This document shows positions 3,593-57,257 of a stretch of DNA of 64,000 bases, piece by piece. Each line of letters starts with the position of its first letter. Position 1 is the stretch's first letter. This stretch comes from Candidatus Falkowbacteria bacterium. Its GTDB lineage: Bacteria; Patescibacteriota; Patescibacteriia; Patescibacteriales; WJLG01. The notes below the pieces were generated by a model, which made no database searches, had not been told where the DNA came from, and saw only the letters and a program-made list of their open reading frames with translations. A program made the position numbers and the translations under genes. The stretch covers positions 164,451 to 228,450 of the forward strand of contig CAVVFV010000010.1 of NCBI GenBank assembly GCA_963747695.1, written 5' to 3'.

Positions 3593-3675
3593 TCCCCTCT
3601 TGCCTGCCCCGCAAAGCGGAAGTGTGCGTGGGGGAGGGGTGACTCGCGCCGCGAGACGGGGAGGGTCTATTCCCG
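3593..3675. repeat. GC-rich palindromic repeat (CCCCTCT...GGGGAGGGG family)
   Basis: cccctcttgcctgccccgcaaagcggaagtgtgcgtgggggaggggtgactcgcgccgcgagacggggaggg, between the queA start and the nuclease gene end. It stands out in an otherwise AT-leaning sequence. Confidence 0.6.
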
Positions 3676-6934: not shown

Positions 6935-9900
6935 TTATAATTTCCTAAATTCGCAAATGCCGTTGTAGTCGCAGAATTTGCATTGCTGGCCGGGGGTCGC
7001 CGGAAATTCTCCCTTGCGGATCGCGCGGATAGTTTCAGAAATCTTTTCATCAAGCTTGGCGAAATCTTTTTCCTTGCCTAAAAATTCTATCTCGCTATTA
7101 TCATTCAAATAGCGATAACAAAGCGCGCCGACTTCCTGACGGAATAATTCTTTCACGGCTTGCTGGTAAATCAATAATTGCGCTTTTTCATTGAATTCCA
7201 ATTTCTCTTTGGGCTTGCCGGTTTTGTAATCAACAATCTTCAGCCTGCCATCGGGCATTTCGTCGATGCGGTCTATTTTTCCGGCGATGGTGATCCCCTC
7301 GCCATCGATCTTCATTCGCAGGGCGAAAGCTTTTTCCAGAAACAGGACTTTCGGCCAATTATTTTTATATTCTTCATAAAAAGCCTTGGTCATCTCTCTG
7401 CCTTTCTCGTGATATTTTTTCTTGTTGGCTTCGGTTTCATACCATTCGTCGATCCACGATTCTTCATAAATTTTCAGGCAATCTTCCAGAGAAAGTAACA
7501 CACCCCGGCCTTCGGCCACCACTCTTGATAGAGGGGAATTTTCTTTTTTATCAGCCGGAGAGACAAATAAACTATCCTGCTTTTTTTCGCCGGCTTCTTT
7601 TACGGTTTGAAGGATTTTCTGCAAAGTTGAATGCATGGTCTTGCCGAAGGACATCTGGAAATTGCCGCGTTTGGGAACTCTTAAGATATTATCAAACCGA
7701 TATTGATACGGGCAGCGTTCGTAAGCTTCAAATTGGGAATAGGAAAATCTTTCCGGCGCTTGAGGTACCCAACTCCGCTCCGTGGCGGAGCTTCGCTGGG
7801 CAAGTCCGGCAATTTTTAATTTCTTTCCGCGCAACATTGAATTCTTATCTTCCAGCGGTTCGACCGCTTTTTCATCGGCATTGCTGATATCCAAATCTTC
7901 GGCTAATTTAGTTTCGACTAAAAATCTTGAAGCGCGTCGTTCGCGTTTCCCGCCGGCATCCGACGACCAGGAAAAATAAATCCCTTTTTTGGCACGAGTA
8001 ATCGCCACGTAAAACAACCGCCGTTCTTCTTCCAAGTGATGGTCGCCAGCGGGGATTATCTCGTCGAGCAAAGCATCAGGAATCTTGATTGACTCAGAAC
8101 GCTCAATCGATGGAAATCGCTTATCGATTAAATTTATGACAAAAACGTATTTGAATTCCAAACCTTTGGCGGCGTGCACGGTCATGATTTTGATCATCGC
8201 CGGGTCTTCTTCGTCGCTCAAAGGCAATGTCCCCTGCTCGCCGGCTTCCATCTCGACCGCTAGTCCGGCCAAAAATTCCCGCACTGATTTATCGGTCGAG
8301 CTGGTCTCAAATTCCTTGATCCGCTTCATGAATTGATTAAGCTGGTTAGTCGCCAAAATCTGCTGCCGCTCCGGCTGGGCATATAGATATTTCAAATACC
8401 CGGTGTCTTCGAGAAAATCCGAAAATATTTCCGAGGCCGGTTTATAGCGCGCATCCGCGGCGTGCTTGCGGAAAATTGCCAAAAATTTGTTGATCTTTTC
8501 CAAGGTTGCGCTGCCCAAACCCAGCGCTGAAGCTTCATTCAAGACTTTATAGAGCGACATGGCTTTGCGCGAAACGATATAATTCATCGCCGCCAATTCT
8601 TCGGCGGTAAAATTGAAAACCGGCAAAGTCAAAACTTTATACAAAGCCACGCCGTCATATTGGTCGGCCACGGCAGTCAGATAACTGATTGAATTGATAA
8701 TCGGTATTGCCGCGTAAAGTCCGCGAGAAGAAAATAATTTATAAGGAAACTGCGCCTCGTCCAGATAGACGCAAATTTCCTTGCCCGCGTCATTAGATCT
8801 AGCCATAATCGCAAAGTCTCCCCAATTCGCCTCTTTGTCCTCAGTTTTTAGTTCGGCAATTTTCTTGACCACCCGAACCATCTCATCGGCGGTATCGGCG
8901 CCGCGAATCACTTCAATCGAACCAGCATCTTTAAAATTCGCTTTTAATTTCTTAGATAATTTATCACCGTCGTTCTTCAATTGCTCCTCTAGGCGGTTGG
9001 GATTATTCAATTTGATAAAATCATAGGCCAGATCCAAAATATTCTGCCGGTTGCGGTAATTCTCAATCAAAAAAACCTGTTTGGCGTCAGGGTAATCTTT
9101 TTTGAATTCCAAAATATTGGCCATGGCCGCGCCGCGGAAGCGGTAGATCGCCTGGTCATCGTCGCCGACGACCGTAATATTATTTTGCGGGGCAGCCAAT
9201 AATTTCACCAGTTCATATTGCGCCCAATTCGTATCCTGGAATTCATCGACTAGAATATATTTGAACCTGGTTTGATAGCGCGCCAACACATTCGGCCGCT
9301 CGCGGAAAAGCTTAAGGCAATAATTGATCAGATCGCCAAAGTCCAGCGCATTATTTTCCAACAATAAATTTTGGTAGATATGAAAAGCATTGGCCACTTC
9401 CTCAATCTTTTTAACTTCGAATTCCGCCACTTCCTGATCGAATTCACCTTTGGCATTAAGAAAATCTGCCGTAGGCGCGCAATGCTTCGTGGGTCCGCAA
9501 TGCTTTGCGTACCGGTCTTCTTCACTGCTTTTCGGAACGCAAGGTATTGCGTTTCTACGTCCGCTTAGCATCCCGTCCAGATTCTGCCGCAGCTCTTCGG
9601 CATATTCCAAATATTTCAACGGCGTGATGTCTTCGTCTTTGCAACGGGAAAAATGCTTGAGCAAGTCGCGGATGAATTTGGTCGGGTTGCCCATCGGCCG
9701 ATAATAATCCAGGCCGAACCGGTCCAGATGTTTCTTGAACAAAGCATACTGCTGATATTCGTCGAGCAATTTATAATCGGTCGGCAAACCGATATCTAAA
9801 CCGGCTTCAGTCAAAACATCCTGGCAGAAAGAATGGAAAGTGGAAATCGACAAATCAAAAAAAGCGCCATAAGGCAACAGCCGATCAACGCGTTCCTCCA

Positions 9901-12190: not shown

Positions 12191-12227
12191 ATATCAAGCT
12201 AAAAAAATAGCTACTAAGAGAATATCT

Positions 12228-12298
12228 TCTTACTTCTTACTTCTTACTTCTTACTTCTTACTTCTTACTTCTTACTTCTTACTTCTTACTTCTTACTT
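12228..12298. repeat. tandem heptanucleotide repeat (TTCTTAC)x10
   Basis: Seen directly. Ten perfect 7-bp units between convergent uvrC and the DUF4340 gene. The last unit overlaps the TAA stop of the minus-strand gene. Confidence 0.9.
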
Positions 12299-13201
12299 CA
12301 AATCCGTCATCTTCTTATCCAGCGCGTCGCGATCGGTTTTGGAAATCAAGTAAATGTCGTCGTTAGCCGCTGACTTGGCGTAGCAGAGATTGTCTTTGGT
12401 ACAGTCGCCGATCATGATCGTATCGTCAAAATCTCCGCCTGTAACCTGGACGATGATGCTATGCTTTTCCAAACCGGTGTTGGTAAAAGTCTGGGCGGGA
12501 ATCTTCACCGCCGTCAAATTTTGCAATACGCTTAACACCGCGTCAATCTTGGTCGCATCGACGTCGAATTTCTTCGGCTGGGTGCCAGTCCACTGGTTGG
12601 CGATCTGTTCGACGGTAAATTGCCGGTCAGGATATTGGAAGCGGATCTTCTCGCTGCGTTCCTTCATAAAAGAAAAGATGGTCAGGCTGCGCCAATCGCT
12701 GCGGCCGAAAATGCTGTTCAAATCCAAAGCGATCGAAAAAGTCTTGCTGGAATCCGGCTCGGCGATGTAGGTGCCGGAGTAATCGGGCGTCGTGGTGCCG
12801 ACCACAAAATCAAAAGTCTGCCGGCCTTGTTCGATCTCGACCTTAATTCCCTGACCATCGGTACCGAAAGAACTTTTTTTATCAGCGTTGGTGCTGACCG
12901 TTTCGATCGGCAAAACGCCGATTTCATTCAGCGCCGAGTCCAAGGCGCCGGCGGCGGTATTGTCCACGCTGAAATTTTTCACGCCGGCGATCGCCCAACC
13001 ATCGGCGGTTTTGTCCAATTCGGTTTTCTGCCCGTTATTATCGATCGAGATCTTTTTAATTTGCGCCAAAGAGACGGCGGCCAGAAAATTCTTTTCCTGC
13101 CCTTTGGTTTTTTTCCAGTCAGCCAGCGGTCCGCTCCAGATCCAAGCAAAAGCGACCAGTAATATCAAAATTCCTCCCAGGATTAAATTCTTTTTAGACA
13201 T
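12293..13201 (-). CDS. DUF4340-like secreted/anchored protein (final gene of GldG-type ABC accessory cluster)
   Basis: N-terminal TM helix, 302 aa. Genomic context downstream of the GldG-like gene as commonly seen. Confidence 0.5.
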   Translation of the reverse strand: MSKKNLILGGILILLVAFAWIWSGPLADWKKTKGQEKNFLAAVSLAQIKKISIDNNGQKTELDKTADGWAIAGVKNFSVDNTAAGALDSALNEIGVLPIETVSTNADKKSSFGTDGQGIKVEIEQGRQTFDFVVGTTTPDYSGTYIAEPDSSKTFSIALDLNSIFGRSDWRSLTIFSFMKERSEKIRFQYPDRQFTVEQIANQWTGTQPKKFDVDATKIDAVLSVLQNLTAVKIPAQTFTNTGLEKHSIIVQVTGGDFDDTIMIGDCTKDNLCYAKSAANDDIYLISKTDRDALDKKMTDLK

Positions 13202-19818: not shown

Positions 19819-19830
19819 AGATATTTAATT

Positions 19831-19872
19831 CCCCTCTTGGGAGGGGTGTCTGCCCCGCACGGACGGGGTGGG
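19831..19872. repeat. GC-rich palindromic repeat (CCCCTCTTGGGAGGGG core)
   Basis: cccctcttgggaggggtgtctgccccgcacggacggggtggg. Confidence 0.6.
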
Positions 19873-19886
19873 TTTATTGTCTTTCA

Positions 19887-20636: not shown

Positions 20637-20646
20637 AAATTTAAGT

Positions 20647-20687
20647 CCCCTCTTGAGAGGGGTGGCCGAAGGCCGGGGTGTGTGAAG
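20647..20687. repeat. GC-rich palindromic repeat (CCCCTCTTGAGAGGGG ... CGGGGTGTGTGAAG)
   Basis: Seen in sequence between hydrolase and DUF559 genes. Confidence 0.65.
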
Positions 20688-20691
20688 ATTT

Positions 20692-21054
20692 TCAAAGGCG
20701 CGGACTATTTTTACCCATCCAATCCTTAATCTCCTCGACAATCGCCCAACGGGCATTTTTAACATTGCTATCTGTAAACCGCAAGAATCTTATTCCCAAT
20801 TTTTCCAATTCCCTCTGGCGAATTTCATCTTCAATTTCTTTATATCCGTGCGAATCACCATCGATCTCGATCGCCAGCCGCAATTCGTCGCAGAAAAAAT
20901 CGACAATATAATTTCCCATTGGCTTCTGCCGGTGAAAATTATAACCGCGGATTTTTCTCTGTTTCAACTCCTGCCAAAGCAGTATTTCGGCCAAGGTGCT
21001 ATGTTTTCTCAAATTACGCGCCAGCTGTTTCAATTTTGGATCGTATTTGATCAA
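20692..21054 (-). CDS. DUF559 (very-short-patch-repair-endonuclease-like) domain protein
   Basis: ...LARNLRKHSTLAEILLWQELKQRKIRGYNFHRQKPMGNYIVDFFCDELRLAIEIDGDSHGYKEIEDEIRQRELEKLGIRFLRF... is a near-textbook DUF559 match. Start is uncertain (TTG at 21054 or upstream). Confidence 0.7.
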   Translation of the reverse strand: MIKYDPKLKQLARNLRKHSTLAEILLWQELKQRKIRGYNFHRQKPMGNYIVDFFCDELRLAIEIDGDSHGYKEIEDEIRQRELEKLGIRFLRFTDSNVKNARWAIVEEIKDWMGKNSPRL

Positions 21055-21115
21055 TAATTTTGTTTTTCTTATCCCCCTCCTTATTAATAAATTATATTTC
21101 CCGCCGCTTCCCAAT

Positions 21116-21247
21116 CTTCACACACCCCGTCAGTCCGCGGCGGACTGCCACCCCTCTCTAGAGGGGACTTTTTCCGACGCCGGTTTCTTCGTTGCGAAGT
21201 CCCCTCTGGAGAGGGGTGCCGAGCCCGGCGAGGCGGGGTGTGTGAAG
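21116..21247. repeat. compound GC-rich palindromic element: outer CTTCACACACCCCG/CGGGGTGTGTGAAG arms enclosing two CCCCTCT..GAGAGGGG hairpins
   Basis: Seen directly. 14-bp perfect outer inverted repeat. Inner cccctctctagagggg and cccctctggagagggg. Confidence 0.7.
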
Positions 21248-21272
21248 ATGTTATTTGCGACAAAATGATTTT

Positions 21273-24228: not shown

Positions 24229-24299
24229 AGTTGTTAGTTCAAATTAATTAATTTTGGCTCTGACAGAGTCTCGCGGCTGCAGACTCTGCCAAGGCTGAT

Positions 24300-24346
24300 C
24301 TTCACACACCCCGTCCGCGCGGCGCGGCCACCCCTCTCAAGAGGGG
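24300..24346. repeat. GC-rich palindromic repeat (CTTCACACACCCCG ... CCCCTCTCAAGAGGGG)
   Basis: Seen in sequence. Followed at 24360-24470 by a further GC-rich palindromic stretch (gtcattgcgagcgcctcgcgaagc...). Confidence 0.6.
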
Positions 24347-24481
24347 AATTTTACTTGTCATTGCGAGCGCCTCGCGAAGCAGTCTCGCCCTGACTGCGTC
24401 TGCTCTTGGGCAGGACATATTAGCCGCGAGGCGCGGGTTTGCTTCGTCGCTAATCGCTCCTCGCATATGTGTTATGTTTTT

Positions 24482-24926: not shown

Positions 24927-25038
24927 ATTGTCATTCCGACCGAGCACGCCGCGTGCGAGCGGAGGAACCGCTTCGAGTTATTTAAAACTTTAAGGGGTCC
25001 TTCGACTGCGGCCGAGGCGGCCTTCGCTCAGGATGACA
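24927..25038. repeat. PE-1 palindromic element copy 2 (intergenic hsp20/grpE)
   Basis: ttgtcattccgaccgagcacgccgcgtgcgagcggaggaaccgcttcgag...aaggggtccttcgactgcggccgaggcggccttcgctcaggatgacaa. Confidence 0.75.
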
Positions 25039-25578: not shown

Positions 25579-25692
25579 CTGTCATTCCGACCGAACGCGC
25601 CGCGCGTGAGCGGAGGAACCGCTTCGAGTTTTTTAAAAACTTTAAGGGGTCCTTCGACTGCGGCCGCGGCGGCCTTCGCTCAGGATGACAAA
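25579..25692. repeat. PE-1 palindromic element copy 3 (intergenic grpE/hrcA)
   Basis: ctgtcattccgaccgaacgcgccgcgcgtgagcggaggaaccgcttcgag...ggccttcgctcaggatgacaa. Confidence 0.75.
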
Positions 25693-34672: not shown

Positions 34673-34738
34673 ACCCTCCCCGTCTCGCCCACGCCCAAGG
34701 GGACACGGCGGGCTCGGCACCCCTGCCGTGGAGGGGAC
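34673..34738. repeat. GC-rich palindromic repeat (…GGCTCGGCACCCCTGCCGTGGAGGGG)
   Basis: Same family as 37563-37606 (gggctcggcacccctcccaagagggg). Sits just after the tyrS stop. Confidence 0.6.
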
Positions 34739-34749
34739 TTTTTTTACTT

Positions 34750-35970
34750 CTAACTTCTTACTTTGACAAATCCCCGTTTACCTTTCTGAATTAAGACTTC
34801 TTTGTCCGCCACCGCCATTTCCGCTTCCCGGTCGCTGACAGTTTGATTATCAACCTTCACGCCGCCCTGTTCGATCAATCGGCCGGCCTCGCTTTTGGAT
34901 TTGGCCAAGCCGGCTTCAACCAGAAATCAGTTAATTGATAATTTCCGGCTGACATTTTGAAGACTGGGATATCAGCCGGTACTTCTTTATTCTGCACCGT
35001 GGCTTCAAAACCGCGCTGGGCTTTTACCGCTTCATCTTCGCCGCGGACGTTTTGACGATTTCGAAAGCCATCATTTTTTTATACTCCATCGGATTGACCC
35101 CTTTGGCCATCTCGCTTTTGATTTCTTTGATCGCTTCCAGCGGAACCTCGGTCAATAATTCCAAACCCATCGCGATATGATCATCGGAATAAGACATCGC
35201 TTTGCCGTACATATCAGCGGAAGAATCGACAAATTTATGCCATTGCCCTTAGTCTTGGACATGGTCCGGCCGTCGGGCGCGTCCATCATCTTGTTGGCGC
35301 GGACAAATCTTTCTTTGCCCAAATAAGCCTTGGATAATTCACGCCCGGCCAGCATATTGAAAGTCTGGTCAGCGCCGGCAATTTCCATATCGACGTTCAT
35401 CGCCACGCCGTCATAACCTTGCATCAAGGGATAAATAAACTCGTGCAAGCCGATCGGATCGCCGGCCGCCAGACGGCGATCGAACATATCGCGATCAAGC
35501 ATCTGCTGCACGGTCATATGCGACATCAATTTGATCACTTCGTCCAGCTTTAATTGCGAAAGCCATTCATGGTTGCGTTTGAATTGGACGGGATTATCGC
35601 CGCCGAAATCAATCAGCTGCGCGGCTTGTTCTTTCCAACCCTGTAAATTTTCTTCGATCTCGGCAACGGAAAGCATCTTCCGGCCGGATTCCTTATCCGG
35701 GTCGCCAACGCGGGCGGTGTAATCACCGACCAGAAAAATCACTTCATGGCCGAGCTGTTGCAGAATGCGCATCGCCCGGATACCCATCGCGTGCCCGACG
35801 TGCAAAAATTTACCGGTCGGATCATAACCTTGGTAAATGCGCAGCCGCTCGCCCGAATACAATTTTTCCCGGAAGCCGTCAACGGAGGGATAAATCGCCT
35901 CGACGCCGCGGGTTAAGAACTTTTCAATCAATTCTTTGTCGACAATCACTTTGGACATATTTTTTATCAA
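34750..35970 (-). pseudogene. tyrS: tyrosyl-tRNA synthetase broken by three 1-nt frameshifts (or local sequencing errors)
   Basis: N-terminal part 35152..35970 (HIGH-like HVGHAMG, KMSKS-like TMSKTKGN), middle part 35024..35212 (MYGKAMSYSDDH...), C-terminal S4 domain in a third and fourth frame (...NYQLTD / FLVEAGLAKSKSEAGRLIEQGGVKVDNQTV...KGKRGFVKV). Shifts map to AAA/AAAA, TTT/TTTT and GCGG(G)CG sites. Confidence 0.75.
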
Positions 35971-37166: not shown

Positions 37167-37529
37167 ATGGACGAACAAAACCAAAATCCGACGCCGCAAA
37201 CGCCACCGGCCGCCAATCCCGGCTCGGCCGACGACCGCGATGCGCAAGAAAATAAGTATGTCGCTCTTTTCTCTTACATCTATATCCTCTTCTTGATCCC
37301 GCTCTTGGCCAAGCGCGATTCTAAATTCTGCCAATTCCATGCCAAGCAAGGCCTGGTGCTTTTCGTCATCGACATCATCGCCAGCCTGTTTATGTGGATC
37401 CCGCTGGTCGGCCAATTACTGATGCTGGCCTTGGCCGTGATCTCGATCATCGGCATCGTCAAAGTCTTGAACGGCGAATACTGGAAGATCCCCTACATTT
37501 ATGATTGGTCGGAAAAAATTAAAATCTAA
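37167..37529 (+). CDS. DUF4870-family small membrane protein
   Basis: ...KYVALFSYIYILFLIPLLAKRDSKFCQFHAKQGLVLFVIDII... matches the family as I recall it. Pro/Gln-rich N-terminus. Confidence 0.55.
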   Translation: MDEQNQNPTPQTPPAANPGSADDRDAQENKYVALFSYIYILFLIPLLAKRDSKFCQFHAKQGLVLFVIDIIASLFMWIPLVGQLLMLALAVISIIGIVKVLNGEYWKIPYIYDWSEKIKI

Positions 37530-37535
37530 TGCTAA

Positions 37536-37655
37536 TTTGCGAATGATGCGAATCTACGAATAACCCACCCCGCCTCGCCGGGCTCGGCACCCCTCCCAAG
37601 AGGGGAATTCGCGCAATTCGCATCATTAGCGAAATTAGCATTATCATTAATTAGC
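37536..37655. mobile_element. MITE-like composite: AT-rich terminal inverted repeats (TGCTAATTTGCGAATGATGCGAAT / ATTCGCATCATTAGCGAAATTAGCA) flanking a GC-rich CCCCTCCCAAGAGGGG core
   Basis: Seen directly. A solo copy of the AT-rich arm (aatgctaattttcgaatgatgcgaatctacgaata) occurs at 2186-2222 upstream of rpsA. Confidence 0.5.
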
Positions 37656-44120: not shown

Positions 44121-45254
44121 CTATTTAAATTCTAAATTTGAATCAGCTTTTAATTTGTTCCAAGGCGTGAAAGCTTTTTTCCGGGCCCGGAAATATCCGG
44201 CCGCGGCGATCATCGCCGCGTTATCAGTAGTATACTCCAAAGGCGGGATATGACAAGCCAGGCCCAGTTTGGCCGCCGCATTCTGGAACTCTTCGCGCAA
44301 AACCAGATTGGCGGAAACTCCGCCGGCCAACATCATTGTTTTAATTTTGAATTTTTTGGCCGCCTTAACCGCTTTGCCGACCAGTGTTTCTACCACGGCT
44401 CGTTCAAATTCATGGCAATACTCCGGAACTTTATTTTTCCAATCCTGATCTTTTTGAATTTTATAAAGCAAGGCGGTCTTCAATCCGGAAAAAGAAAAAT
44501 CAAAATTCGGATCATTCAACATCGGACGAGGTAGAATTATCCCCCTCCCGGGGAAGGGTGGCCGCGCCGCGCGGACGGCTTGCCCCGAGCCCTGTCGAGG
44601 GGGGTGTGTGACGGCGTAATCAGCATAGACATTTTTAAATTCTGCCGCTAACTTCGCCACAGCCGGTCCGCCCGGATAGCCAATACCGAGAAGTTTGGCC
44701 GCTTTATCAAATGCTTCGCCAGCCGCGTCATCCCTGGTTTCGCCGATCGTCTGGAATTTGCCATGGCTTTTCATTAATATAAGCATGGTGTGTCCTCCGG
44801 AAACAGTCAGAATCAGCGCCGGGAATTTTATTTTTTCGTTGCCGATAAAATTTGCATAAATATGCCCTTCAATATGATTAACGGCCACCGCCGGAATTTT
44901 CCAGGCATAAGCCAAAGTTCGCGCCGTTTCCACGCCGACCAAAAGCGAAGTAATCAATCCTGGGCCGACCGTTACCGCCAGCGCATCAATTGCCGGCTTC
45001 GTAGGAACGCAATATTTTGCGTTCTTTTTTTGAGCGCAAGATATTGCGCTCCTACCGATCGCCTCGTTAATCACCGGCAAAATATTCAAAATATGCTCCC
45101 GGGCCGCGATTTCCGGGACGACGCCATTATATTTCCGGTGAATTTCGATCTGCGAAGAAACAACATTCGACAAAACCTTGACGGCATCTCCTTTGCCTTC
45201 AATCACGCTGGCAGCGGTCTCATCACAGCTGGTTTCGATGCCCAAAATTATCAT
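44121..45254 (-). CDS. tsaD: tRNA N6-adenosine threonylcarbamoyltransferase TsaD with two in-frame repeat insertions
   Basis: MIILGIETSCDETAASV...GVVPEIAAREH...VTVGPGLITSLLVG...FDFSFSGLKTAL. Extra segments SAISCAQKKNAKYCVPTKP (45004-45051 hairpins) and ADYAVTHPPRQGSGQAVRAARPPFPGRGII (44538-44612 GC-rich repeat) relative to canonical TsaD. Confidence 0.85.
   Translation of the reverse strand: MIILGIETSCDETAASVIEGKGDAVKVLSNVVSSQIEIHRKYNGVVPEIAAREHILNILPVINEAIGRSAISCAQKKNAKYCVPTKPAIDALAVTVGPGLITSLLVGVETARTLAYAWKIPAVAVNHIEGHIYANFIGNEKIKFPALILTVSGGHTMLILMKSHGKFQTIGETRDDAAGEAFDKAAKLLGIGYPGGPAVAKLAAEFKNVYADYAVTHPPRQGSGQAVRAARPPFPGRGIILPRPMLNDPNFDFSFSGLKTALLYKIQKDQDWKNKVPEYCHEFERAVVETLVGKAVKAAKKFKIKTMMLAGGVSANLVLREEFQNAAAKLGLACHIPPLEYTTDNAAMIAAAGYFRARKKAFTPWNKLKADSNLEFK
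44538..44612. repeat. GC-rich palindromic repeat inserted in frame within tsaD
   Basis: ccccctcccggggaagggtggccgcgccgcgcggacggcttgccccgagccctgtcgaggggggtgtgtgac. Same family as the intergenic copies. Confidence 0.7.
45001..45056. repeat. compound small palindrome (GTAGGAACGCAATATTTTGCGTTC...GAGCGCAAGATATTGCGCTCCTAC) inside tsaD
   Basis: Two tandem hairpins inside an outer GTAGGA/TCCTAC inverted repeat. Confidence 0.7.
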
Positions 45255-45382: not shown

Positions 45383-45454
45383 GGTCCCTTCGTCTATCGG
45401 TTAGGACACCAGGTTTTCATCCTGGTAAGAGGGGTTCGACTCCCCTAGGGACTA
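45383..45454 (+). tRNA. tRNA-Glu (anticodon TTC), no encoded CCA
   Basis: GGTCCCTTCGTCTATCGGTTAGGACACCAGGTTTTCATCCTGGTAAGAGGGGTTCGACTCCCCTAGGGACTA. Acceptor GGTCCCT/AGGGACT (one GU), anticodon loop TTTTCAT, T-arm GGGGTTCGACTCCCC. Confidence 0.85.
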
Positions 45455-45668
45455 CGTAAAAGAAAACACTCGACCTCAGTCGAGTGTTTTCTTTTACGTA
45501 ATTTCGGGAGTCGAACTGGTTGCGAGCGAGCTATGAGCCGCGAGGGAACGAGCGGCGAATAAGCAAGCGACGCCAGACGCGACCAACGGGAGCGTTTGGC
45601 GGCAACCCCGGACAAAGGAGCGAAGCGCAATCCGGCGCCGAGCGACTGCGACGACTCCCCTAGGGACT
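45455..45668 (+). other. 214-bp GC-rich structured element X, copy 1: 21-bp perfect hairpin plus GC-rich core, ending in a 17-bp copy of the tRNA-Glu 3' end (CGACTCCCCTAGGGACT)
   Basis: Seen directly. ~96% identical to copy 2 (47420-47633). Copy differences include a compensatory hairpin change (gcgcaatccggcgc vs ggcggtttccgcc). Confidence 0.8.
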
Positions 45669-45680
45669 TCGGATAAATAA

Positions 45681-45710
45681 AAAATACTGACTTAACGCCA
45701 GTATTTTTTA
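45681..45710. terminator. bidirectional hairpin terminator (aatactgacttaacgccagtatt with flanking A/T runs)
   Basis: Downstream of cassette gene A1 on the minus strand. Confidence 0.6.
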
Positions 45711-45729
45711 TTTATCCGAATTTTTAAAA

Positions 45730-46392
45730 CTATTTTGCAAATCTAAAAGTTTCCACTATGGCTTTCATCATCGCATCCTCATTGAGTATATTAGATCCCA
45801 TTCCCGCCGTCATTGGATCAAATTCATAAATCAAGTTTCCTTTTTTAACAAAGTAGGAATAAGACCTCCCGTAAATAGAATCTTGGGAATAAAATGACAT
45901 AGCCTCATCGCTTGTAGGAATATCAACTTTGTTTAAATTTTCTGCTTTAGCCCCCTGACTAGAATATGCTTTTATAATCCAATCTTCAAGTGACAGATTA
46001 CTTACATTTTCGGATGCCGATATATTTACTGGGATATCAAAATCTCCACTAGACTTGGGGAAAATTTGCATGGAACCGCCATTTTGCAAAGATTTATCGC
46101 TTGATGTAAACGATACTATCCAATCCTTAGGAGCACTTATTTTATAACCATACTGTTTGTTTTCGTATGTTTGCCAATCGTTTTTATCGATTTTTACCGC
46201 ATCGATTTCAACTACGGTTGGGTGCTGTGAAATCGTCGAGGAAGCGATTGCAGACACCGGAGTAGAAGTGCTTATAGTTTCCTTTTTAACTTCTGGAACA
46301 GCTGAATGAGATTGATATTTAACAAAAATGATCAAACCCGCGACGATAATCAAAACAATGCCTACGCAAATAAAAATAATGTTTTTTTTCAT
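45730..46392 (-). CDS. cassette gene A1: N-terminally membrane-anchored extracytoplasmic protein, paralog of A2
   Basis: 220 aa. TM then Ser/Thr-rich linker. C-terminal ...AMMKAIVETFRFAK shared with A2 (...AMMKAIIETFRFTK). Confidence 0.6.
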   Translation of the reverse strand: MKKNIIFICVGIVLIIVAGLIIFVKYQSHSAVPEVKKETISTSTPVSAIASSTISQHPTVVEIDAVKIDKNDWQTYENKQYGYKISAPKDWIVSFTSSDKSLQNGGSMQIFPKSSGDFDIPVNISASENVSNLSLEDWIIKAYSSQGAKAENLNKVDIPTSDEAMSFYSQDSIYGRSYSYFVKKGNLIYEFDPMTAGMGSNILNEDAMMKAIVETFRFAK

Positions 46393-46481
46393 AGAATGAA
46401 ACTTTTTATTATGATAAATTTATAAATAATTAAAATAGGGGGCGGTGTTTTCTTGAACACCGCCCGATTAATAACCGATCA

Positions 46482-47138
46482 CTATTGGATGTGATAAACA
46501 TTGTAGCCCAGTTTTTGGTTAGCCGACGTAGGCCTGGTAAATGCGTAAAAGTCGGAATACGACACGAAGTGGGTAGAGATATAATTTTCTTTTGGCGGAT
46601 TGTTTGCCGGTGCCGCGACAAAATTACAATCCAGCATGTAAAAACCTTTCACGCCGCCCACTGTTACGTTTCCGTTTAGAAAAAAAGAAGTGTGCTGAGT
46701 AGGGTGATAGGTACCGTCAGCCCAGCGAACATTCCAATACATTTGGATAATGTCAGCTGGGACGCAATATTCGACCATTGTGCTTCTGCCTTGGATCGGC
46801 ATACATGGGGCATCCTGCCACATGCTCATGTTATTCGGATAATATGCCGGAATCTGGACGGCTTGTCCGCTTGCCGTCAAAACGACATGAGACACCCAAC
46901 CCCAACACTGCCCCGTGTTGTGGCCACCAATTTCGGAATTTGCTTTGGCAAGAATCTTACTGTCCCTAGTCGCTTGCGGCAATGCTTCCCACGTCTTCAT
47001 TGCCGTTGATTGCGTGCAACCAGAAGAAAGTGCTGCTATGGGTTGTGCGGATTGTTCTTTACTGCTATTTACGGGATTATTACTGCATCCCAAAACAACA
47101 AACAGAAAAGCAAGTGAAACAAATAGATTGGTTTTCAT
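46482..47138 (-). CDS. cassette gene B1: CHAP-domain (Cys/His amidohydrolase-peptidase-like) lipoprotein
   Basis: Signal plus lipobox ...VLGCSNNPVNSSKEQ. GQCWGWVSHVV (CHAP Cys motif) and ...TQHTSFFLNG (His). Paralog of B2. Confidence 0.6.
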   Translation of the reverse strand: MKTNLFVSLAFLFVVLGCSNNPVNSSKEQSAQPIAALSSGCTQSTAMKTWEALPQATRDSKILAKANSEIGGHNTGQCWGWVSHVVLTASGQAVQIPAYYPNNMSMWQDAPCMPIQGRSTMVEYCVPADIIQMYWNVRWADGTYHPTQHTSFFLNGNVTVGGVKGFYMLDCNFVAAPANNPPKENYISTHFVSYSDFYAFTRPTSANQKLGYNVYHIQ

Positions 47139-47419
47139 GCCAATCCTCCTTTGGTTTAGAATGGTTTAGTTTCCTGACAATAGTAATCAATTTTGAAAAG
47201 AACGAGCGTAAAAGAACCGGAACTAACTGGTATTCGCTTTCATCTCAATCTCCTTGTTAAGATTATACGATTTATTAACTATAATTAATAGGTTAGCAAA
47301 AAAAAAATGGCCTTTGTCAAATTTTTCAATAATTTAAGCCTAAAATTTTACTGGCACCAACCTTTTCCATTTCCGAATATCCTGGATGATGGGGTGTAAA
47401 TTCTCAATACAGTAGTCTA

Positions 47420-47633
47420 CGTAAAAGAAAACACTCGACCTCGGTCGAGTGTTTTCTTTTACGTAATTTCGGGAGTCGAACTGGTTGCGAGCGAGCTATG
47501 AGCCGCGAGGGAACGAGCGGCGAATAAGCGAGCGACGCCAGACGCAACCAACGGGAGCGTTTGGCGGCAACCCCGGACAAAGGAGCGAGGCGGTTTCCGC
47601 CGCCGAGCGACTGCGACGACTCCCCTAGGGACT
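47420..47633 (+). other. structured element X, copy 2
   Basis: cgtaaaagaaaacactcgacctcggtcgagtgttttcttttacgtaatttcgggagtcgaactggttgcgagcg...cgactgcgacgactcccctagggact. Confidence 0.8.
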
Positions 47634-47696
47634 ACGGATATAAAAAAGACTGATACTATCAGTCTTTTTTATTTGAATCGTTCCAATTTGTTCGAA

Positions 47697-48371
47697 CTAT
47701 TTTGTAAACCTAAAAGTTTCAATTATTGCCTTCATCATTGCATACTGATCAAGTAAATCACTATTCAAATCCATGGCACCAAAACCGAAAACATCATCGC
47801 CCTTTTTAACATAAGCACCATAAATCCCGTGTGACAATCCAACAAATGCTCCGTCGCTCGACGGAATGTTTATCTCCATTATTTGCGCGGGGTTATCCTT
47901 CGCTTCCTGGCGATATTTTTTAAGCCAAACTTCTGGTGATGAAGTGTCATGAATAATGCCAATTGCTGTAGGAGCATTAAATTTTTCATCGCTATTTGGC
48001 ATTATCAATAACTCGGTGCCATTTAAAAGATCGAGTTTCCCCGTAAAATTCCATCCCGCCGGAGCACTAATTTCAAAACCATACTTTTCATCCTTGTAAA
48101 TTTGCCAATTATTTTTATCTATTTTCACAGCGTTTATTTCTGCAAAGGTTGGATATGCTAAATTTGGAGATGAAGATGCTATCGTCCCCAAATTTGAGCT
48201 GCTAGCAACATTGTTCTGCTGGTTAATTAAAGAACTCGAAGAAGCAATTTTATTGACCTGATTTGCCCTATTCTTTTGATAACTTTTTTTCAATGGATAC
48301 TCTTTTAAAACAACAACTCCGACTACAAGTAAAATAACTGCCAGCCAAATTAAGATTGTTTTTTTCTTCAT
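47697..48371 (-). CDS. cassette gene A2 (paralog of A1)
   Basis: 224 aa, same architecture and conserved C-terminus. Confidence 0.6.
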   Translation of the reverse strand: MKKKTILIWLAVILLVVGVVVLKEYPLKKSYQKNRANQVNKIASSSSLINQQNNVASSSNLGTIASSSPNLAYPTFAEINAVKIDKNNWQIYKDEKYGFEISAPAGWNFTGKLDLLNGTELLIMPNSDEKFNAPTAIGIIHDTSSPEVWLKKYRQEAKDNPAQIMEINIPSSDGAFVGLSHGIYGAYVKKGDDVFGFGAMDLNSDLLDQYAMMKAIIETFRFTK

Positions 48372-48452
48372 ATAAATATAAAAATTATTTAAATTTAAAA
48401 ATTGGAATGGTGTATTCTGCTAAACACCATTCCAGCTAACTAATTGCTATTG

Positions 48453-49136
48453 TCACTGAATCTGATATACCGAAAAACCCAAAAGTGGATTATTCACGGT
48501 GGCGGTGGTAAATAATTTGAAATCCGCGTAGGTCACTTTATGAACACTAACCGTGTACTTCGGGCTAAAATTACAATCAATCCACATCATGCAATTTTTA
48601 GTGTCGTCCGTATAGCCACTTGTATTACTTACAACAATTGCAGTGTGTGGGCCTTGGGGACCCAAAGATCCGTTGGCTAACCTTGGTGTCCACCAAAGCT
48701 GAAATATTTGGCCAGGCGCAACCCAAGGAAGTGATGAAGCATTGCTATAAAGCTTTACGACTTGGCTGTTAAAGCAATCTGCACTTAACCATGAATAATA
48801 GTTGGGGGTGCCGCCATGATCACAAGTATTGGCACCGATCGTGATGCCGCTAACCGGCAAAACAACATACGATTGCACCCAAGGCTTACACTCAACGGGC
48901 GGAATGTAGTTACTATAGTTGTTACCATTCATTGCTTGCGCAAAGGCCAAAAGCTTCGCATTTTTTTGCGGTTGCGACAGTAAATTCCAGGCCTGCAAGG
49001 TAGGCGTTATCGTACAAGTGGTGGCTACTGCTGCAAGTGGTTGAACCAACTGTTCTTTACTGCTATTCACGGGATTATTACTGCATCCCAAAATTGCAGC
49101 TGACAAGACAAGAGCAAAACAAAGATATTTTTTCAT
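48453..49136 (-). CDS. cassette gene B2: CHAP-domain lipoprotein (paralog of B1)
   Basis: Identical lipobox region ILGCSNNPVNSSKEQ. CKPWVQSYVV and GPHTAIVVSN motifs. Confidence 0.6.
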   Translation of the reverse strand: MKKYLCFALVLSAAILGCSNNPVNSSKEQLVQPLAAVATTCTITPTLQAWNLLSQPQKNAKLLAFAQAMNGNNYSNYIPPVECKPWVQSYVVLPVSGITIGANTCDHGGTPNYYSWLSADCFNSQVVKLYSNASSLPWVAPGQIFQLWWTPRLANGSLGPQGPHTAIVVSNTSGYTDDTKNCMMWIDCNFSPKYTVSVHKVTYADFKLFTTATVNNPLLGFSVYQIQ

Positions 49137-49476
49137 ATCCAGCCCTTTGGTTGCTGAGTTGATGGTTTAATGATCTGACAATAGTAATCAATTTTTAAAA
49201 GAACAAATACTGAAAGAACATTAGCTTGAATCCATTTTTTCGCCTCCCTGTTAGAATTATACGGTTTATTAATGACTATTAACAGAGTAGCAAAAAAAAA
49301 ATGACATTCGTCAAATTTTTCAATAATTTAAGCCTAAAATTTCACTTATATAAATATCATCCATTTCTTAATATCCGCGATAATAGGATGTAAATTCTCA
49401 ATACAGTAGTCTACTGAAAATAAAATACCGCCACGCAAATTCGCGGGCGGTATAAATTATTCTGCTAAAAAAGAGC

Positions 49477-54177: not shown

Positions 54178-54822
54178 TTTGAGGCTGGCTTTTCATCCCG
54201 CCCCAGTTTTTATATAAAATAATTTCACTATCCGCTATAATTATTTTTTGATAATTTATCGTCTACCCCGTTTACCAACAAAACTGGCGGCGGGATTATA
54301 CGATCCCTTTCTCGCCTTCCCTCGCCCCTAGCGAGGGGCGAGGTCGGCTCAAAGGGCTTGCGTATAAAAAAGGGGAGAAGCCGATCATCGATCAGCCCTC
54401 CCCTGCTCAAAATGCGAAATCCTGAAAAGGAGTTGCGGAGCTCCCCGCGGAAATAAACCACCGTAAAAAGAGGTCTCGAACCTCATCAAGAGTCCGTTAC
54501 CAGACTCAGGGATTCCATGGTGATCCTTCGCATTTTGAAAAAAATATTTTTTCCTCTTTAATATAGAGAGGGAAGTTGTTGTCCTTCCCTCCCTCGCCCT
54601 TTACTGGCAGGAAGCCTGAAACGTACTGAGGAAAAAAATCGTCCCAGGCACTTTTACCCTATCGCAGGAAAAACAAACAGTCAATCCTCTTGTCTTAAAG
54701 ATAAATTATTGATAGATTATATTTTAGGAATTGAATGAAAAAGAGAATATAAAATCTTAGATCGCCTTTGGCGGGCTTTGCCTCGCCGAAGTCCCGCCTT
54801 GGCAGGACGAAGGCGGGTATCG

Positions 54823-54907: not shown

Positions 54908-54982
54908 CGCGGGTATCGTATAGCGGTTATTATGCCAGTTTTCCAAACTGGTCATAGGGGTTCGACTCCCCTTACCCGCTCC
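54908..54982 (+). tRNA. tRNA-Gly (anticodon TCC), CCA encoded
   Basis: GCGGGTATCGTATAGCGGTTATTATGCCAGTTTTCCAAACTGGTCATAGGGGTTCGACTCCCCTTACCCGCTCCA. Acceptor GCGGGTA/TACCCGC, anticodon stem CCAGT/ACTGG with loop TTTCCAA. Confidence 0.85.
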
Positions 54983-56469
54983 AAAGAGAAACAAGACCTA
55001 TTTTCCAGAAATTTTTCACGCGCTTCGCGAAGCGAAGCGTAAGGTTTAATGGGCACAAATTGAATTTTTTTATCTTTCAAAAACAGGTTCGAGCCGGAAA
55101 TTTTTACGGCTGAAGATTTTTTATCCAAAAGTGATGATGAAATGGCGTTTTCGCCTATATTTACTGCGTCTTTTATCCATTCCCGCATCGGTTCGAGCCA
55201 AACTATAGACCCTCTCTTAAAATCGACGATTTTCTCCTCCAGCGACTTCTTGCGAGAGAGAAGACTCGCCTTCTCCGTGAGGTATGCCTCGCGCTCTATG
55301 TCTTGGTCTAAATATGCGGTAAGAAGGCGCTGGAGCTTCGCCTCGATAGCTATAACTTCTTCTCTCATCTCATGACTTACAGTTGCTGATAATTGGGCGG
55401 CCTCTTTTGCATCTTTGTCGGTCATTTTCAAGAGTTCTGCCGCCCAATCGGAAGGCATAGCATATTCTTTTAGGACATCAGTCAATTGCGCGATCAATTC
55501 CTTGTCTTTCATGTACGGTTGTGAGCAAGCCCCTTTCTTTTTGGTGCAGTGATAGTAAGTATATTCATGGGTCTTGCCGGATACCTGCCTTTTTATCTTA
55601 TGCTCAGCCGTAATGGAACAGCCGCACTCGCCGCACCTAAATAGCCCGCATAGCGGCTGAGGTTCGTTTTTAATCTTGTCGTGCGGTTTGCCGCGATCGG
55701 CAATCACAGCCTGCACGCGGTCAAATAATTTTTTGGAAATGATTGACTCGTGTGTGCCTTCGTAGACTTCGCCGGCATATTGGAACAGGCCGCAATAAAA
55801 AATGTCGGATAATATGCGCGATATTCTGTCCCGCTTGAATATGCTTCCGGTGTCGGCGCGCACGCCTTTCTCCGCGAAGAACGCGGAGATATCTTCAAGC
55901 CGCGAGTTGCCCTTGGCGTAAAGTTCAAAGGCGGCAATCACCACCTTCGCCGTTTTTCTCTCCACGATAATGCGTTTCGTCCGAACGTCGTTCAAGTATC
56001 CGAGCGGGGCGCGCGAAGGATATTCGCCTCTCTTAACTTTTTCGTGTAGTCCGCGTTTAGTGTTAGTGCTCAAGTCGATGATGAACTGGTTAGCCATGCC
56101 AAACTCCATGCTCATAACCAGCGTGTTGTCGGTCGAGCGATAGCTCCGGTCATGGGTTTGGATATGTTGGATAGTTCCCCGCTGTAAAAACCAGCTGATT
56201 TGTCCGCCGTCGATCGGATTGCGGGCGAGACGATCAAGTTTCCAGCAAACAATGCCTTGCGCCTCGCCTTTTTCAAGGCGCGAAAGCATCTCGCCAAATA
56301 CAGGGCGTCCAGGTCTCTTGGCTGATTGTTTTTCGATAAACTCCTCAACGATATTCAACCCTTCGGTCTTGGCCAGCGCCCGCAAGACGGCCAGCTGATC
56401 GTCAATAGAACGGACTTGCTTGTCTTCAACGTCAGTCGATTTGCGGGCGTAGAGGAAATAATTTGGCAT
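54952..56469 (-). CDS. large serine recombinase (resolvase/invertase N-terminal domain + recombinase domain + zinc-ribbon + coiled-coil)
   Basis: ...FLYARKSTDVEDKQVRSIDDQLAVLRAL (catalytic Ser region), ...GIVCWKLDRLARN, recombinase-domain motifs, CGECGCSITAEHK...YYHCTKK zinc ribbon. C-terminal 58 aa are encoded by IR-L and the last 9 aa by the tRNA-Gly 3' end. Confidence 0.85.
   Translation of the reverse strand: MPNYFLYARKSTDVEDKQVRSIDDQLAVLRALAKTEGLNIVEEFIEKQSAKRPGRPVFGEMLSRLEKGEAQGIVCWKLDRLARNPIDGGQISWFLQRGTIQHIQTHDRSYRSTDNTLVMSMEFGMANQFIIDLSTNTKRGLHEKVKRGEYPSRAPLGYLNDVRTKRIIVERKTAKVVIAAFELYAKGNSRLEDISAFFAEKGVRADTGSIFKRDRISRILSDIFYCGLFQYAGEVYEGTHESIISKKLFDRVQAVIADRGKPHDKIKNEPQPLCGLFRCGECGCSITAEHKIKRQVSGKTHEYTYYHCTKKKGACSQPYMKDKELIAQLTDVLKEYAMPSDWAAELLKMTDKDAKEAAQLSATVSHEMREEVIAIEAKLQRLLTAYLDQDIEREAYLTEKASLLSRKKSLEEKIVDFKRGSIVWLEPMREWIKDAVNIGENAISSSLLDKKSSAVKISGSNLFLKDKKIQFVPIKPYASLREAREKFLENRSCFSLERVRGVEPL
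54978..55152. repeat. IR-L: 175-bp perfect inverted repeat (partner at 56921-57094). Starts within the last 5 nt of tRNA-Gly.
   Basis: Verified by reverse-complementing block by block. Every 10-mer matched. Confidence 0.95.
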
Positions 56470-56920: not shown

Positions 56921-57094
56921 GAAAACGCCATTTCATCATCACTTTTGGATAAAAAATCTTCAGCCGTAAAAATTTCCGGCTCGAACCTGTTTTTGAAAGA
57001 TAAAAAAATTCAATTTGTGCCCATTAAACCTTACGCTTCGCTTCGCGAAGCGCGTGAAAAATTTCTGGAAAATAGGTCTTGTTTCTCTTTGGAG
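56921..57094. repeat. IR-R: inverted partner of IR-L. Encodes an alternative recombinase C-terminus on the plus strand.
   Basis: Tracker ORF 56894..57139 reproduces ENAISSSLLDKKSSAVKISGSNLFLKDKKIQFVPIKPYASLREAREKFLENRSCFSLE then continues TLRNEIRTIYTQIS. Confidence 0.95.
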
Positions 57095-57257
57095 ACGCTA
57101 AGAAACGAAATCCGAACAATTTATACCCAAATTTCTTGACGCTTTCGCCACCTGTTCAACCCCTTATCTACCCCGTTTGTTAGAACTCATCTTGGCCAAA
57201 ACGGCGGCGATTTACCGTTTCCTCTGGCAACTATTGAAGCTAACCAATAATAAAGAA

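Follow-up and report, generated by a model that had tools for sequence, protein, structure and literature searches.

Repeats of the BoxC/PIT/TMECO type have been known since the 1990s, and we know of no origin, mechanism of spread or partner protein found for them; DUF559/YcjD is a very common domain for which we likewise know of no function. Abundant 'intrastrand triplex' repeats in bacteria were described by Holder et al. (2015; PMC4666352), after Hoyne and Maher (2000). The TMECO consensus is CCCTCNCCC N3-6 GGGNGAGGG N3 GGGNGAGGG, and the repeat forms a stable triplex in vitro (PMC4666352). It is intergenic, has no strand bias, often occurs in inverted pairs and is linked to local genome variability; it has neither promoter nor terminator activity and was reported not to be associated with mobile elements (PMC4666352). 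Purine-motif triplexes cannot form in RNA (PMC4666352). Here we describe a family of GC-rich repeat units in a 64-kb stretch of contig CAVVFV010000010.1 from a Candidatus Falkowbacteria bacterium, hereafter called the window, in which one copy lies in frame within the gene tsaD. With a probability of roughly 0.65, this family is a real mobile repeat of the triplex class that is physically linked to DUF559 gene cassettes and has a tolerated in-frame copy in tsaD; the role of the DUF559 enzyme is excepted from this figure and is weighed separately. All coordinates are positions in the window, L-numbers denote comparison stretches from other genomes, and P-numbers denote TsaD orthologues.

On the G-rich strand, a unit runs from a pyrimidine arm CCCCTCY through a 2-4-nt loop to a purine arm RGAGGGG (hairpin 1), and then through a turn to a G/T tail GGGGTGK(GT). 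The turn starts with TG and ends with C, and between them stands a variable GC mini-hairpin whose loop is C-GNA-G; the mini-hairpin is optional, and units are 40-55 nt long. One example of a G-rich strand, which measures 37-45 nt, is CCCCTCTTGAGAGGGGTGGCCGAAGGCCGGGGTGTGT. Placed antiparallel on the arm 5'-RGAGGGG, the tail 5'-GGGGTGK gives four G.G-C triplets, then T.A-T, G.G-C and K.R-Y, which is the purine-motif triplex code. Among 152 units the tail base K tracked the R of the purine arm and not the Y, with A/T found 57 times, G/G 94 times and one exception; the code was thus obeyed at the variable triplet in 151/152 units, a tally of sequences and not of independent events. The top pair of hairpin 1 in the same units was T-A in 56, C-G in 70, T.G in 25 and C.A in one, and since T.G is tolerated while C.A is nearly absent, selection acts on one strand.

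The coded tail was also counted in loci that had been chosen via the DUF559 protein and were hence unbiased toward the repeat. Within 45 nt of the hairpin the exact coded tail was present in 155 of 323 strand-wise hairpins (about 161 palindromes), and in the same loci the control codes gave 7 (pure mirror), 0 (A>C) and 0 (parallel register). The matrix of purine arm to tail was diagonal across four arm variants:

AGAGGGG to GGGGTGT, 98
GGAGGGG to GGGGTGG, 20
AAGGGGG to GGGGGTT, 13
AGGGGGG to GGGGGGT, 14

The middle module pairs as a hairpin in 73 of 89 distinct variants, versus 14% of shuffles, with loops that are mostly GAA, GCA, GTA or GGA (GNA triloops). C-GNA-G loops are classic, very stable DNA mini-hairpins, typical of DNA rather than RNA. 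As the linker between arm and tail can be as short as TA, GA or TGCA, the middle hairpin is only a turn. Nearest-neighbour DNA folding, a method that cannot model triplets, formed hairpin 1 and the mini-hairpin and left the tail unpaired. In the 4 nt flanking the 152 units, AAAT (39) and AATT (17) were found on the left among others, and the right flank was heterogeneous. Because the tail obeys the antiparallel purine-motif code, the units are assigned on their sequence to the intrastrand-triplex class of BoxC/PIT/TMECO repeats, as a separate, hairpin-bearing family. The G-rich single strand most likely folds as an intramolecular purine-motif triplex, with the tail antiparallel on the purine arm, and the covariation is rare comparative evidence for selection on a DNA triplex fold. 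A G-quadruplex or i-motif was ruled out, there being just two G-runs per strand. Hairpin 1 was also considered as a source of Shine-Dalgarno sequences (GAGGGG lies 10-12 nt before the ATG at 19818 and 20636) and rejected, as L002 has a separate AAGGAGG after the unit.

Ten copies were found in the window, eight of them complete units and two degenerate and in frame (in tsaD and in an addA-like gene); eight of the ten are intergenic and two intragenic. These copies, their host genes and the associated repeat are as follows:

3593-3675, plus strand: unit of the sub-family with an A.A-T-type tail, located between queA and the gene upstream, its hairpin 1 loop containing a nested insertion of about 31 nt
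7491-7538, minus strand: slightly degenerate unit (E=1.1e-10), in frame in the addA-like helicase-nuclease gene, residues 855-871, NSPLSRVVAEGRGVLLS
19831-19873, plus strand: complete unit located between the hydrolase gene and the one after it, with arm GGAGGGG and tail GGGGTGG
20647-20687, plus strand: complete unit at the DUF559 stop codon, the downstream 'B' unit of the cassette read on the minus strand
20692-21114, minus strand: DUF559/Vsr-like PD-(D/E)XK nuclease gene between inverted units (Pfam DUF559, E=8.6e-30)
21116-21170, minus strand: complete unit immediately upstream of the DUF559 gene, which its tail GGGGTGTGT faces
21197-21247, plus strand: complete unit downstream of dnaK, half of a BIME/REPIN-like inverted doublet with 21116-21170
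24300-24346, minus strand: complete unit that separates the hsp20 gene from a 257-aa open reading frame (ORF)
34673-34738, minus strand: longer unit of the same sub-family as 3593-3675, its tail (..CGGGGAGGGT) being of the A.A-T type, a short way downstream of tyrS
37563-37606, minus strand: complete unit flanked by the MamF-like and PPDK genes, nested centrally within an AT-rich inverted repeat
37527-37553 / 37616-37643, no strand: AT-rich inverted repeat of a different family, enclosing unit 37563
44121-45254, minus strand: intact tsaD ORF of 377 aa, host of the in-frame copy (Pfam TsaD, E=7.7e-81)
44538-44612, plus strand (G-rich 'A' form): degenerate, expanded unit in frame in tsaD, residues 215-239, VTHPPRQGSGQAVRAARPPFPGRGI

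The GC content of the copies was 0.66-0.77 against a window mean of about 0.45, which bore out the original prediction of a dispersed GC-rich repeat family at the places it named. A profile was made from seven canonical units, and a search of the window with it gave matches at E<=1e-10 at 24297-24350(-), 21113-21170(-), 21197-21249(+), 20643-20690(+), 19827-19874(+), 37561-37609(-) and 7491-7538(-); the tsaD copy (44539-44611) was a weak match (E=0.027), and copies 3593 and 34673 were marginal. A general search for a hairpin followed by a coded tail found the eight complete units, six of the T.A-T type and two of the A.A-T type (3594-3664 and 34677-34736). The predicted count of nine or more copies was sound as to the family and its size, although it overlooked 7491-7538 and took in a hairpin at 54310-54340 that is unrelated, matching neither the profile nor the hairpin-plus-tail search. 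A sliding-GC island scan was discarded as a copy finder, being too unspecific in a genome rich in GC-rich coding stretches.

The architecture first proposed for the units had to be revised. The pattern CCCCTC(T/C)nnnGAGAGGGG has no match in the window even with one mismatch allowed, and the 16-bp core palindrome is really CCCCTCY-NN-RGAGGGG, with seven occurrences. Of the sequences CTTCACACACCCCG and CGGGGTGTGTGAAG, which had been taken for outer arms, each unit has just one, as its 3' tail; for the two to stand face to face takes a doublet or a pair of units around the DUF559 gene. The AT-rich inverted repeats noted at 37536-37655 do exist, as a different repeat and not as termini of the GC-rich unit; a single arm of this repeat lies upstream of tsaD in L002. 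Aligned in one orientation, the sites read (A)A(G/T)T-CCCCTCYNNRGAGGGG-TG-(variable GC hairpin)-CGGGGTG(T/G)GT(GAAGAT). By their middle hairpins they form sub-lineages GCCGAAGGC (copies 20647 and 7498), CCGAGCCCGGCGAGG (21197 and 37563) and GGCCGCGCCGCGCGGA (24300 and the tsaD copy). The doublet at 21116-21247 consists of two inverted units with inverted ends (ATCTTCACACACCCC / GGGGTGTGTGAAGAT), and its predicted fold has a dG of -54 kcal/mol and z = -11.

Segments of about 30 nt, themselves GC-rich, were seen nested in the loop of hairpin 1 at 3601-3632 of the window, at tsaD site 1 of L001 and at about 6760-6800 of L213. The segment CC(A/G)CGCATCGCT(A/T)CGCTTTGCGGGGCA(A/G)GC is common to L001 and L213. 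This suggests a further small element that may insert into the hairpin 1 loop.

The in-frame copy in tsaD, which had been predicted, was confirmed: 75 nt, or 25 codons, are read as part of the TsaD protein, and the middle hairpin, TGGCCGCGCCGCGCGGACGG, is identical in this copy and in copy 24300. The nearest relatives of the window TsaD were from Patescibacteria metagenome-assembled genomes (MAGs). When its codons were aligned with those of three syntenic relatives, canonical units of 46-50 nt were found in L001 and L004 at the exact position of the tsaD copy; these units read (V/I)THP...HPS(R/Q)EG, and L002 is without a unit at this site, site 3 (GAA TTC AAG GGA ACT GGC GAA ATT ATT CTG CCG). 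The insert was also corroborated by independent assemblies. Among 120 orthologues, TsaD was variable in length at three sites (after INEAL.KAGI, after HIYANFI and before LPRPM). Pentapeptides that match a translation of hairpin 1 in one of the three frames (PS.EG, P[LP].RG and PL.[RG]G) occurred in 21 of the 120, compared with 2.2 in shuffles, and were confined to these three hot spots. An AlphaFold2 model of TsaD had a mean predicted local distance difference test score (pLDDT) of 81.6 and dropped under 50 precisely in the two inserted segments, residues 70-85 and 211-236. Given the units at the same site in orthologues, the insert peptides and the low pLDDT, the tsaD copy is a genuine insertion, in frame and tolerated, within a disordered loop. 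What lies at 44538-44612 is an old copy of the dispersed repeat, partly decayed and in frame in a surface loop of TsaD, and different sub-lineages have filled the site in different genomes.

In Patescibacteria, coding copies would persist where their length keeps the frame; GC-rich sequence has few stop codons, and the site would be a disordered loop. A literature search on palindromic in-frame repeats in Patescibacteria (the candidate phyla radiation) and on the exact sequences returned no description of the family, and in-frame insertions of such repeats were not found in the literature searched. Inserts of this kind matter for gene calling, for protein-family alignments and for the origin of extra protein loops.

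Other repeats were also observed in frame in the same genes. A second, unrelated palindrome of 27 nt (CGGAACGCAAGGTATTGCGTTCCTACG) is in frame in three housekeeping genes, at 2692-2718 in queA, at 9533-9559 in the addA-like gene and at 45003-45056 in tsaD, where two copies are in tandem; its translation is RRNAIPCVP in both queA and addA, and the two tsaD copies read GRSAISCAQ and KKNAKYCVP. Related peptides were found at the same TsaD site in orthologues P0007 and P0010. Further recurrent peptide inserts at the TsaD hot spots, such as ..SARVRVKSALVCG.. and ..IRNPKSETNSKFKIQNSKF.., were found at site 1 in P0024, P0029, P0036 and P0038 and at site 3 in P0024, P0029, P0032 and P0043. These inserts point to further repeat families that may be invading coding loops in Patescibacteria. 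The ultra-small genomes of this group tolerate repeated in-frame invasion of essential genes (tsaD, queA, addA) by several repeat families.

A comparison of presence and absence among relatives had been set beforehand as the test of mobility. Near-identical copies and common middle-hairpin sub-lineages were found within and between genomes. A unit lies downstream of tsaD in L002 only, and another upstream of tsaD in L001 only. Across the dnaK operon, which is syntenic, L213 (whose DnaK is 94% identical) carries two DUF559 cassettes, both at sites other than that in the window, L214 has one solo unit, and L215 and L216 have none. Since the positions of units and cassettes vary among close relatives, the units are mobile. 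The original prediction had regarded missing target-site duplications together with identical positions as speaking against mobile elements; the positions were found to differ, and no significant flanking direct repeat was found at the window copies and cassettes tested (n=8). In relatives, flanking duplications were variable (none, 7, about 40 and 58 nt). The longest was found in L213, where a cassette of A unit, DUF559 gene and B unit downstream of dnaJ has a direct repeat of the dnaJ 3' end on both sides (L213 8838-8895 and 9413-9470); the two copies are identical at 52 of 58 positions, with a score of 86 compared with a shuffle maximum of 31, and are unusually long for a target duplication. 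One solo unit in a relative had a marginal 40-nt repeat, and two others had nothing beyond chance.

An exact match was sought elsewhere with the pattern CCCCTCYNNRGAGGGGTGN{9,19}CGGGGTGKGT, which has about 24 specified bases. Among the matches listed were at least 120 stretches from many phyla, a breadth to be read qualitatively. They included Opitutales and other Verrucomicrobiota, Binatia, cyanobacteria (among them Nodosilinea nodulosa PCC 7104, an isolate), Ignavibacteria, Bacteroidota, Acidobacteria, Nitrospira, Pelosinus and a Nanoarchaeia MAG. Closed chromosomes made up several of the matched sequences. Inverted doublets were frequent, with a spacing of 13-45 nt, and viral contigs gave 7 matches in 2.9 million. 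These comparisons of sequences show that copies of the units have reached new sites within genomes and that many phyla contain them.

When ORFs within 150 nt of units were clustered in at least 120 loci, DUF559 was the one genuine recurrent family, and its gene invariably lay between inverted units. The DUF559 protein of the window matched PDB 3hrl, an 'endonuclease-like protein' (E=3.6e-17), and NCBIfam PRK09767 (YcjD family); YcjD-type proteins are predicted Vsr-like PD-(D/E)XK nucleases (PMC1189080). An identical cassette architecture was found in four phyla, represented by the window, Lacunisphaera (L024), Chitinophaga (L033) and L112, whose DUF559 proteins are 51-58% identical. The order is a B unit, an A unit ending in GGGGTGTGT, 10-95 nt, the DUF559 ORF, and a second B unit (ACACACCCC...) that abuts or overlaps the stop codon. 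A search that started from the protein gave 575 metagenomic DUF559 relatives, and of the best 80 of these 575, the closest to the query, 59 had a strict coded unit where one was expected and in the orientation foreseen. The arm classes of the upstream and downstream units matched in 25 of 26 cassettes. Identity between DUF559 proteins was 0.605 within arm classes and 0.599 between them, a weak co-variation. A literature search on DUF559 or ycjD together with repeats found no link described.

Other small, selfish-looking genes were observed at variable sites of the same syntenic regions, namely a 23S_rRNA_IVP four-helix-bundle gene, a PDDEXK_3 gene and a GIY-YIG gene (L216 4014-4382; L001 9008-9406; L002 9475-9735). 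The PDDEXK_3 gene of L001 is flanked by AT-rich repeats, and the unit finder detected no triplex-type units in L216.

A DUF559 gene and a triplex repeat also lie together in Escherichia coli K-12 (L212, NC_000913.3 1351204-1351760). There, the stop codon of ycjD is inside a degenerate BoxC-like hairpin (CCCTCTCCC-TGAAAGAGC-GAGGGGG), a duplicated 3' fragment of ycjD follows the gene, and a complete TMECO (#9) is located 167 nt downstream. With 23 TMECOs in 4.64 Mb, we estimate the chance of this proximity at about 0.004. Both ycjD and this TMECO were present between fabI and sapF in 3,346 of 5,426 E. coli genomes, and a ycjD-lacking genome that was examined (H23) had an efflux operon of the eef type there. 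Strains positive for eef carry eefRABCD between fabI and sapF, and two or more losses of eef, with ycjD taking over its place, are inferred (PMC12817139). The ycjD-TMECO segment was also seen to alternate with the eefRABCD operon among lineages (L212, L217). As the link between DUF559 and the repeats reaches E. coli K-12, a tractable model organism is at hand.

From the cassettes, it may be that the copying of units depends on the DUF559 nuclease, or that the nuclease at least moves together with them, and we hold the former tentatively, at somewhat short of even odds. The nuclease would recognise the folded single-strand unit and drive its copying, in parallel to the role of RAYT transposases on REP/REPIN elements. 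The wider proposal, that YcjD-type DUF559 nucleases and intrastrand-triplex repeats form a cross-phylum selfish system resembling RAYT/REPIN but using another enzyme and a single strand folded as a triplex, with E. coli BoxC/ycjD as a member and with essential proteins of Patescibacteria reshaped through in-frame insertion at loop hot spots, is possible and somewhat more doubtful still. A consistent link, as seen from Patescibacteria to Verrucomicrobia, Bacteroidota and E. coli K-12, would give a testable explanation for both the repeats and the DUF559 proteins; it was not found in the literature searched.

Several points weigh against a mobile triplex-class repeat linked to DUF559. The triplex is read from covariation, which a few ancient sub-families could partly mimic by descent, and for TMECO no evidence of a stable triplex in vivo has been reported (PMC4666352). 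Filled and empty forms of tsaD site 3 do not differ by a clean insertion, as an extra 21 nt also differ. One cassette has a flanking duplication of 58 nt and the window copies have none, and the taxonomic breadth is a qualitative one. About one quarter of the best 80 DUF559 homologues are without a strict unit, though most of these have variant units, and the window has ten units and a single DUF559 gene. Finally, we know of no DUF559 protein that acts on such DNA.

The main rival to an enzymatic role in copying is that DUF559 is a selfish homing-type nuclease gene which targets pre-existing repeat doublets, the repeats themselves being kept by the host for some use or multiplying otherwise (by slippage in replication, a switch of template at stalled forks, recombination or some enzyme so far unseen). 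Doublets in both the A-B and B-A arrangements occur without the gene, the gene is consistently found in the tail-to-tail junction, and the window has ten units to one DUF559 gene. The 58-nt duplication of the dnaJ 3' end resembles repair or recombination more than transposition, and TMECO has been tied to local instability (PMC4666352). On the other hand, the two units of a cassette belong to the same arm class in all but one of the 26 cassettes, the order B, spacer, A, gene, B is kept between relatives, which fits an entity of unit plus gene, and no other candidate enzyme was found near the units, among the ORFs near the listed loci and the 57 ORFs of the window. We consider homing fairly unlikely, and copying that depends on the nuclease only somewhat more probable.

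That the units are intrinsic transcription terminators or attenuators at gene boundaries, a general role which had also been proposed originally, is improbable. Eight of the ten copies are intergenic, the C-rich orientation has A(A/C)TTTT after hairpin 1 in several copies, and a scan gave terminator-like hits at 21151-21166, 24331-24346, 34720-34736 and 20662-20647; three of these hits, however, are antisense to the flanking genes. A GC hairpin with a T-run on the sense strand fits a few copies (34720-34736 on the plus strand and 3593 on the minus strand), the others being antisense, without a T-run or, in two cases, intragenic (tsaD and addA). Orientation relative to transcription is mixed, with four copies G-rich (A-form) and six C-rich (B-form) in the sense RNA, the conserved and covarying tail has no role in a terminator, and PIT elements are without terminator activity (cited in PMC4666352).

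The original prediction had offered a mobile MITE (miniature inverted-repeat transposable element) as its other interpretation, of which the mobility stands and the classical MITE does not. A deletion derivative of an insertion sequence, moved by a DDE transposase in trans and bounded by terminal inverted repeats and fixed target-site duplications, would also be small, multi-copy and polymorphic, and the doublet 21116-21247 does have inverted ends. Single units, though, are the commonest form and have no such ends, neither a Y1 nor a DDE transposase was detected among the 57 window ORFs scanned, and the gene flanked by units encodes a nuclease. A sequence of about 40 nt is, moreover, conserved across phyla, unlike lineage-specific MITEs. 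Lacking terminal inverted repeats, a regular target duplication and a transposase, the units are not classical MITEs, and we give that explanation very little weight.

Equally improbable is a structured RNA, either a small RNA or a cis-regulatory element with hairpins acting after transcription, since its two hairpins with compensatory changes and its tolerance of G.T wobble on one strand are set against an orientation independent of the direction of transcription, intragenic copies in both orientations, C-GNA-G triloops of the kind generally typical of stable DNA mini-hairpins, a search of Rfam at gathering thresholds in which no family matched the units and only three tRNAs were matched, and a G.G-C / T.A-T antiparallel code that RNA does not form (PMC4666352).

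The genes near the copies are mostly on the minus strand and comprise queA, the addA-like UvrD/PD-(D/E)XK gene, tyrS, the MamF-like gene, PPDK and tsaD, and the operon around the cassette has the order hrcA-grpE-hsp20-(257 aa)-dnaK-DUF559-hydrolase-...-dnaJ. Aligned with its L001 and L002 orthologues, the essential gene tyrS (34768-35958, minus strand) falls into four pieces, in frames -2, -1, -3 and -2, which amounts to three frameshifts. These are either indel errors of the assembly or the mark of a pseudogene, and on their account the assembly may hold indel errors. A family of 82-nt repeats (67-79% identity) is present at 24957-25038 and 25609-25690 in the hrcA/grpE/hsp20 spacers and at 3155-3236 in queA, where it is in frame and adds 28 residues (109-136). 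Just downstream of a 444-aa ORF with a UvrC RNase H domain, a heptamer (CTTCTTA)n is repeated in tandem about 11 times (12226-12302). Repeats about 2 kb apart in the region 45452-49428 (231 nt at 95%, 185 nt at 81% and 125 nt at 70%) accompany four similar ORFs of 218-227 aa without a Pfam match, beside a tRNA gene at 45383-45454, and each begins with a palindromic 48-mer, TACGTAAAAGAAAACACTCGACC.... A large serine recombinase gene (54952..56469, minus strand) lies within a 182-nt inverted repeat that is 98% complementary (54971-55152 / 56921-57102), one arm of which overlaps a tRNA gene at 54909-54980; the segment 54909-57102 may be invertible or integrated.

Among described repeats that enter genes, the Rickettsia palindromic elements (RPEs; Ogata et al. 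2000) are reportedly small palindromic repeats found in frame in housekeeping genes of a reduced genome. The present units were likewise both intergenic and in frame in conserved genes, with an orthologue free of the insert, and both kinds of element add peptide segments at tolerated surface positions. RPEs differ in their unrelated sequence and host and in their length of 100-150 bp, and we know of no nuclease associated with them and no triplex code.

The likeness to BoxC/PIT/TMECO repeats is in the fold itself. In both, one strand carries a C-rich arm, a loop, a purine arm, a loop and a G-rich antiparallel third strand (class II purine motif), and both are GC-rich, about 35-55 nt long, multi-copy, intergenic, without strand bias, often in inverted pairs and polymorphic among strains. 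The units are not TMECO proper, however: their arms are different and 7 nt long, giving seven triplets (CCCCTCY / RGAGGGG / GGGGTGK) where TMECO has nine (CCCTCNCCC / GGGNGAGGG / GGGNGAGGG), and their second loop of 2-40 nt usually holds, unlike that of TMECO, a variable GC mini-hairpin (9-21 nt). With loops restricted to 1-6 nt, the ITxF search would pass over most copies of the present family. The units occur in many phyla, whereas BoxC/PIT/TMECO repeats are found in proteobacteria alone, and they are also in frame inside genes and linked to DUF559 genes, whereas TMECO was reported without an association with mobile elements.

With REP, BIME and REPIN elements the units share the form of short GC-rich hairpins that occur as singlets and as inverted doublets forming a long hairpin. 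The resemblance to REP/REPIN-RAYT extends to one small enzyme gene between inverted copies, the lack of a regular target duplication and a folded single strand under selection. The units are without the REP tag GTAG/CGTC, their flanks being AAAT or AATT (152 units), and their fold includes a third strand, which sets it apart from that of REP/REPIN. The enzyme gene encodes a Vsr-like PD-(D/E)XK nuclease in the units and a Y1 (HUH) transposase in REP/REPIN-RAYT, and the units are common to different phyla, in contrast to REPIN-RAYT systems, which for the most part are lineage-specific and inherited vertically.

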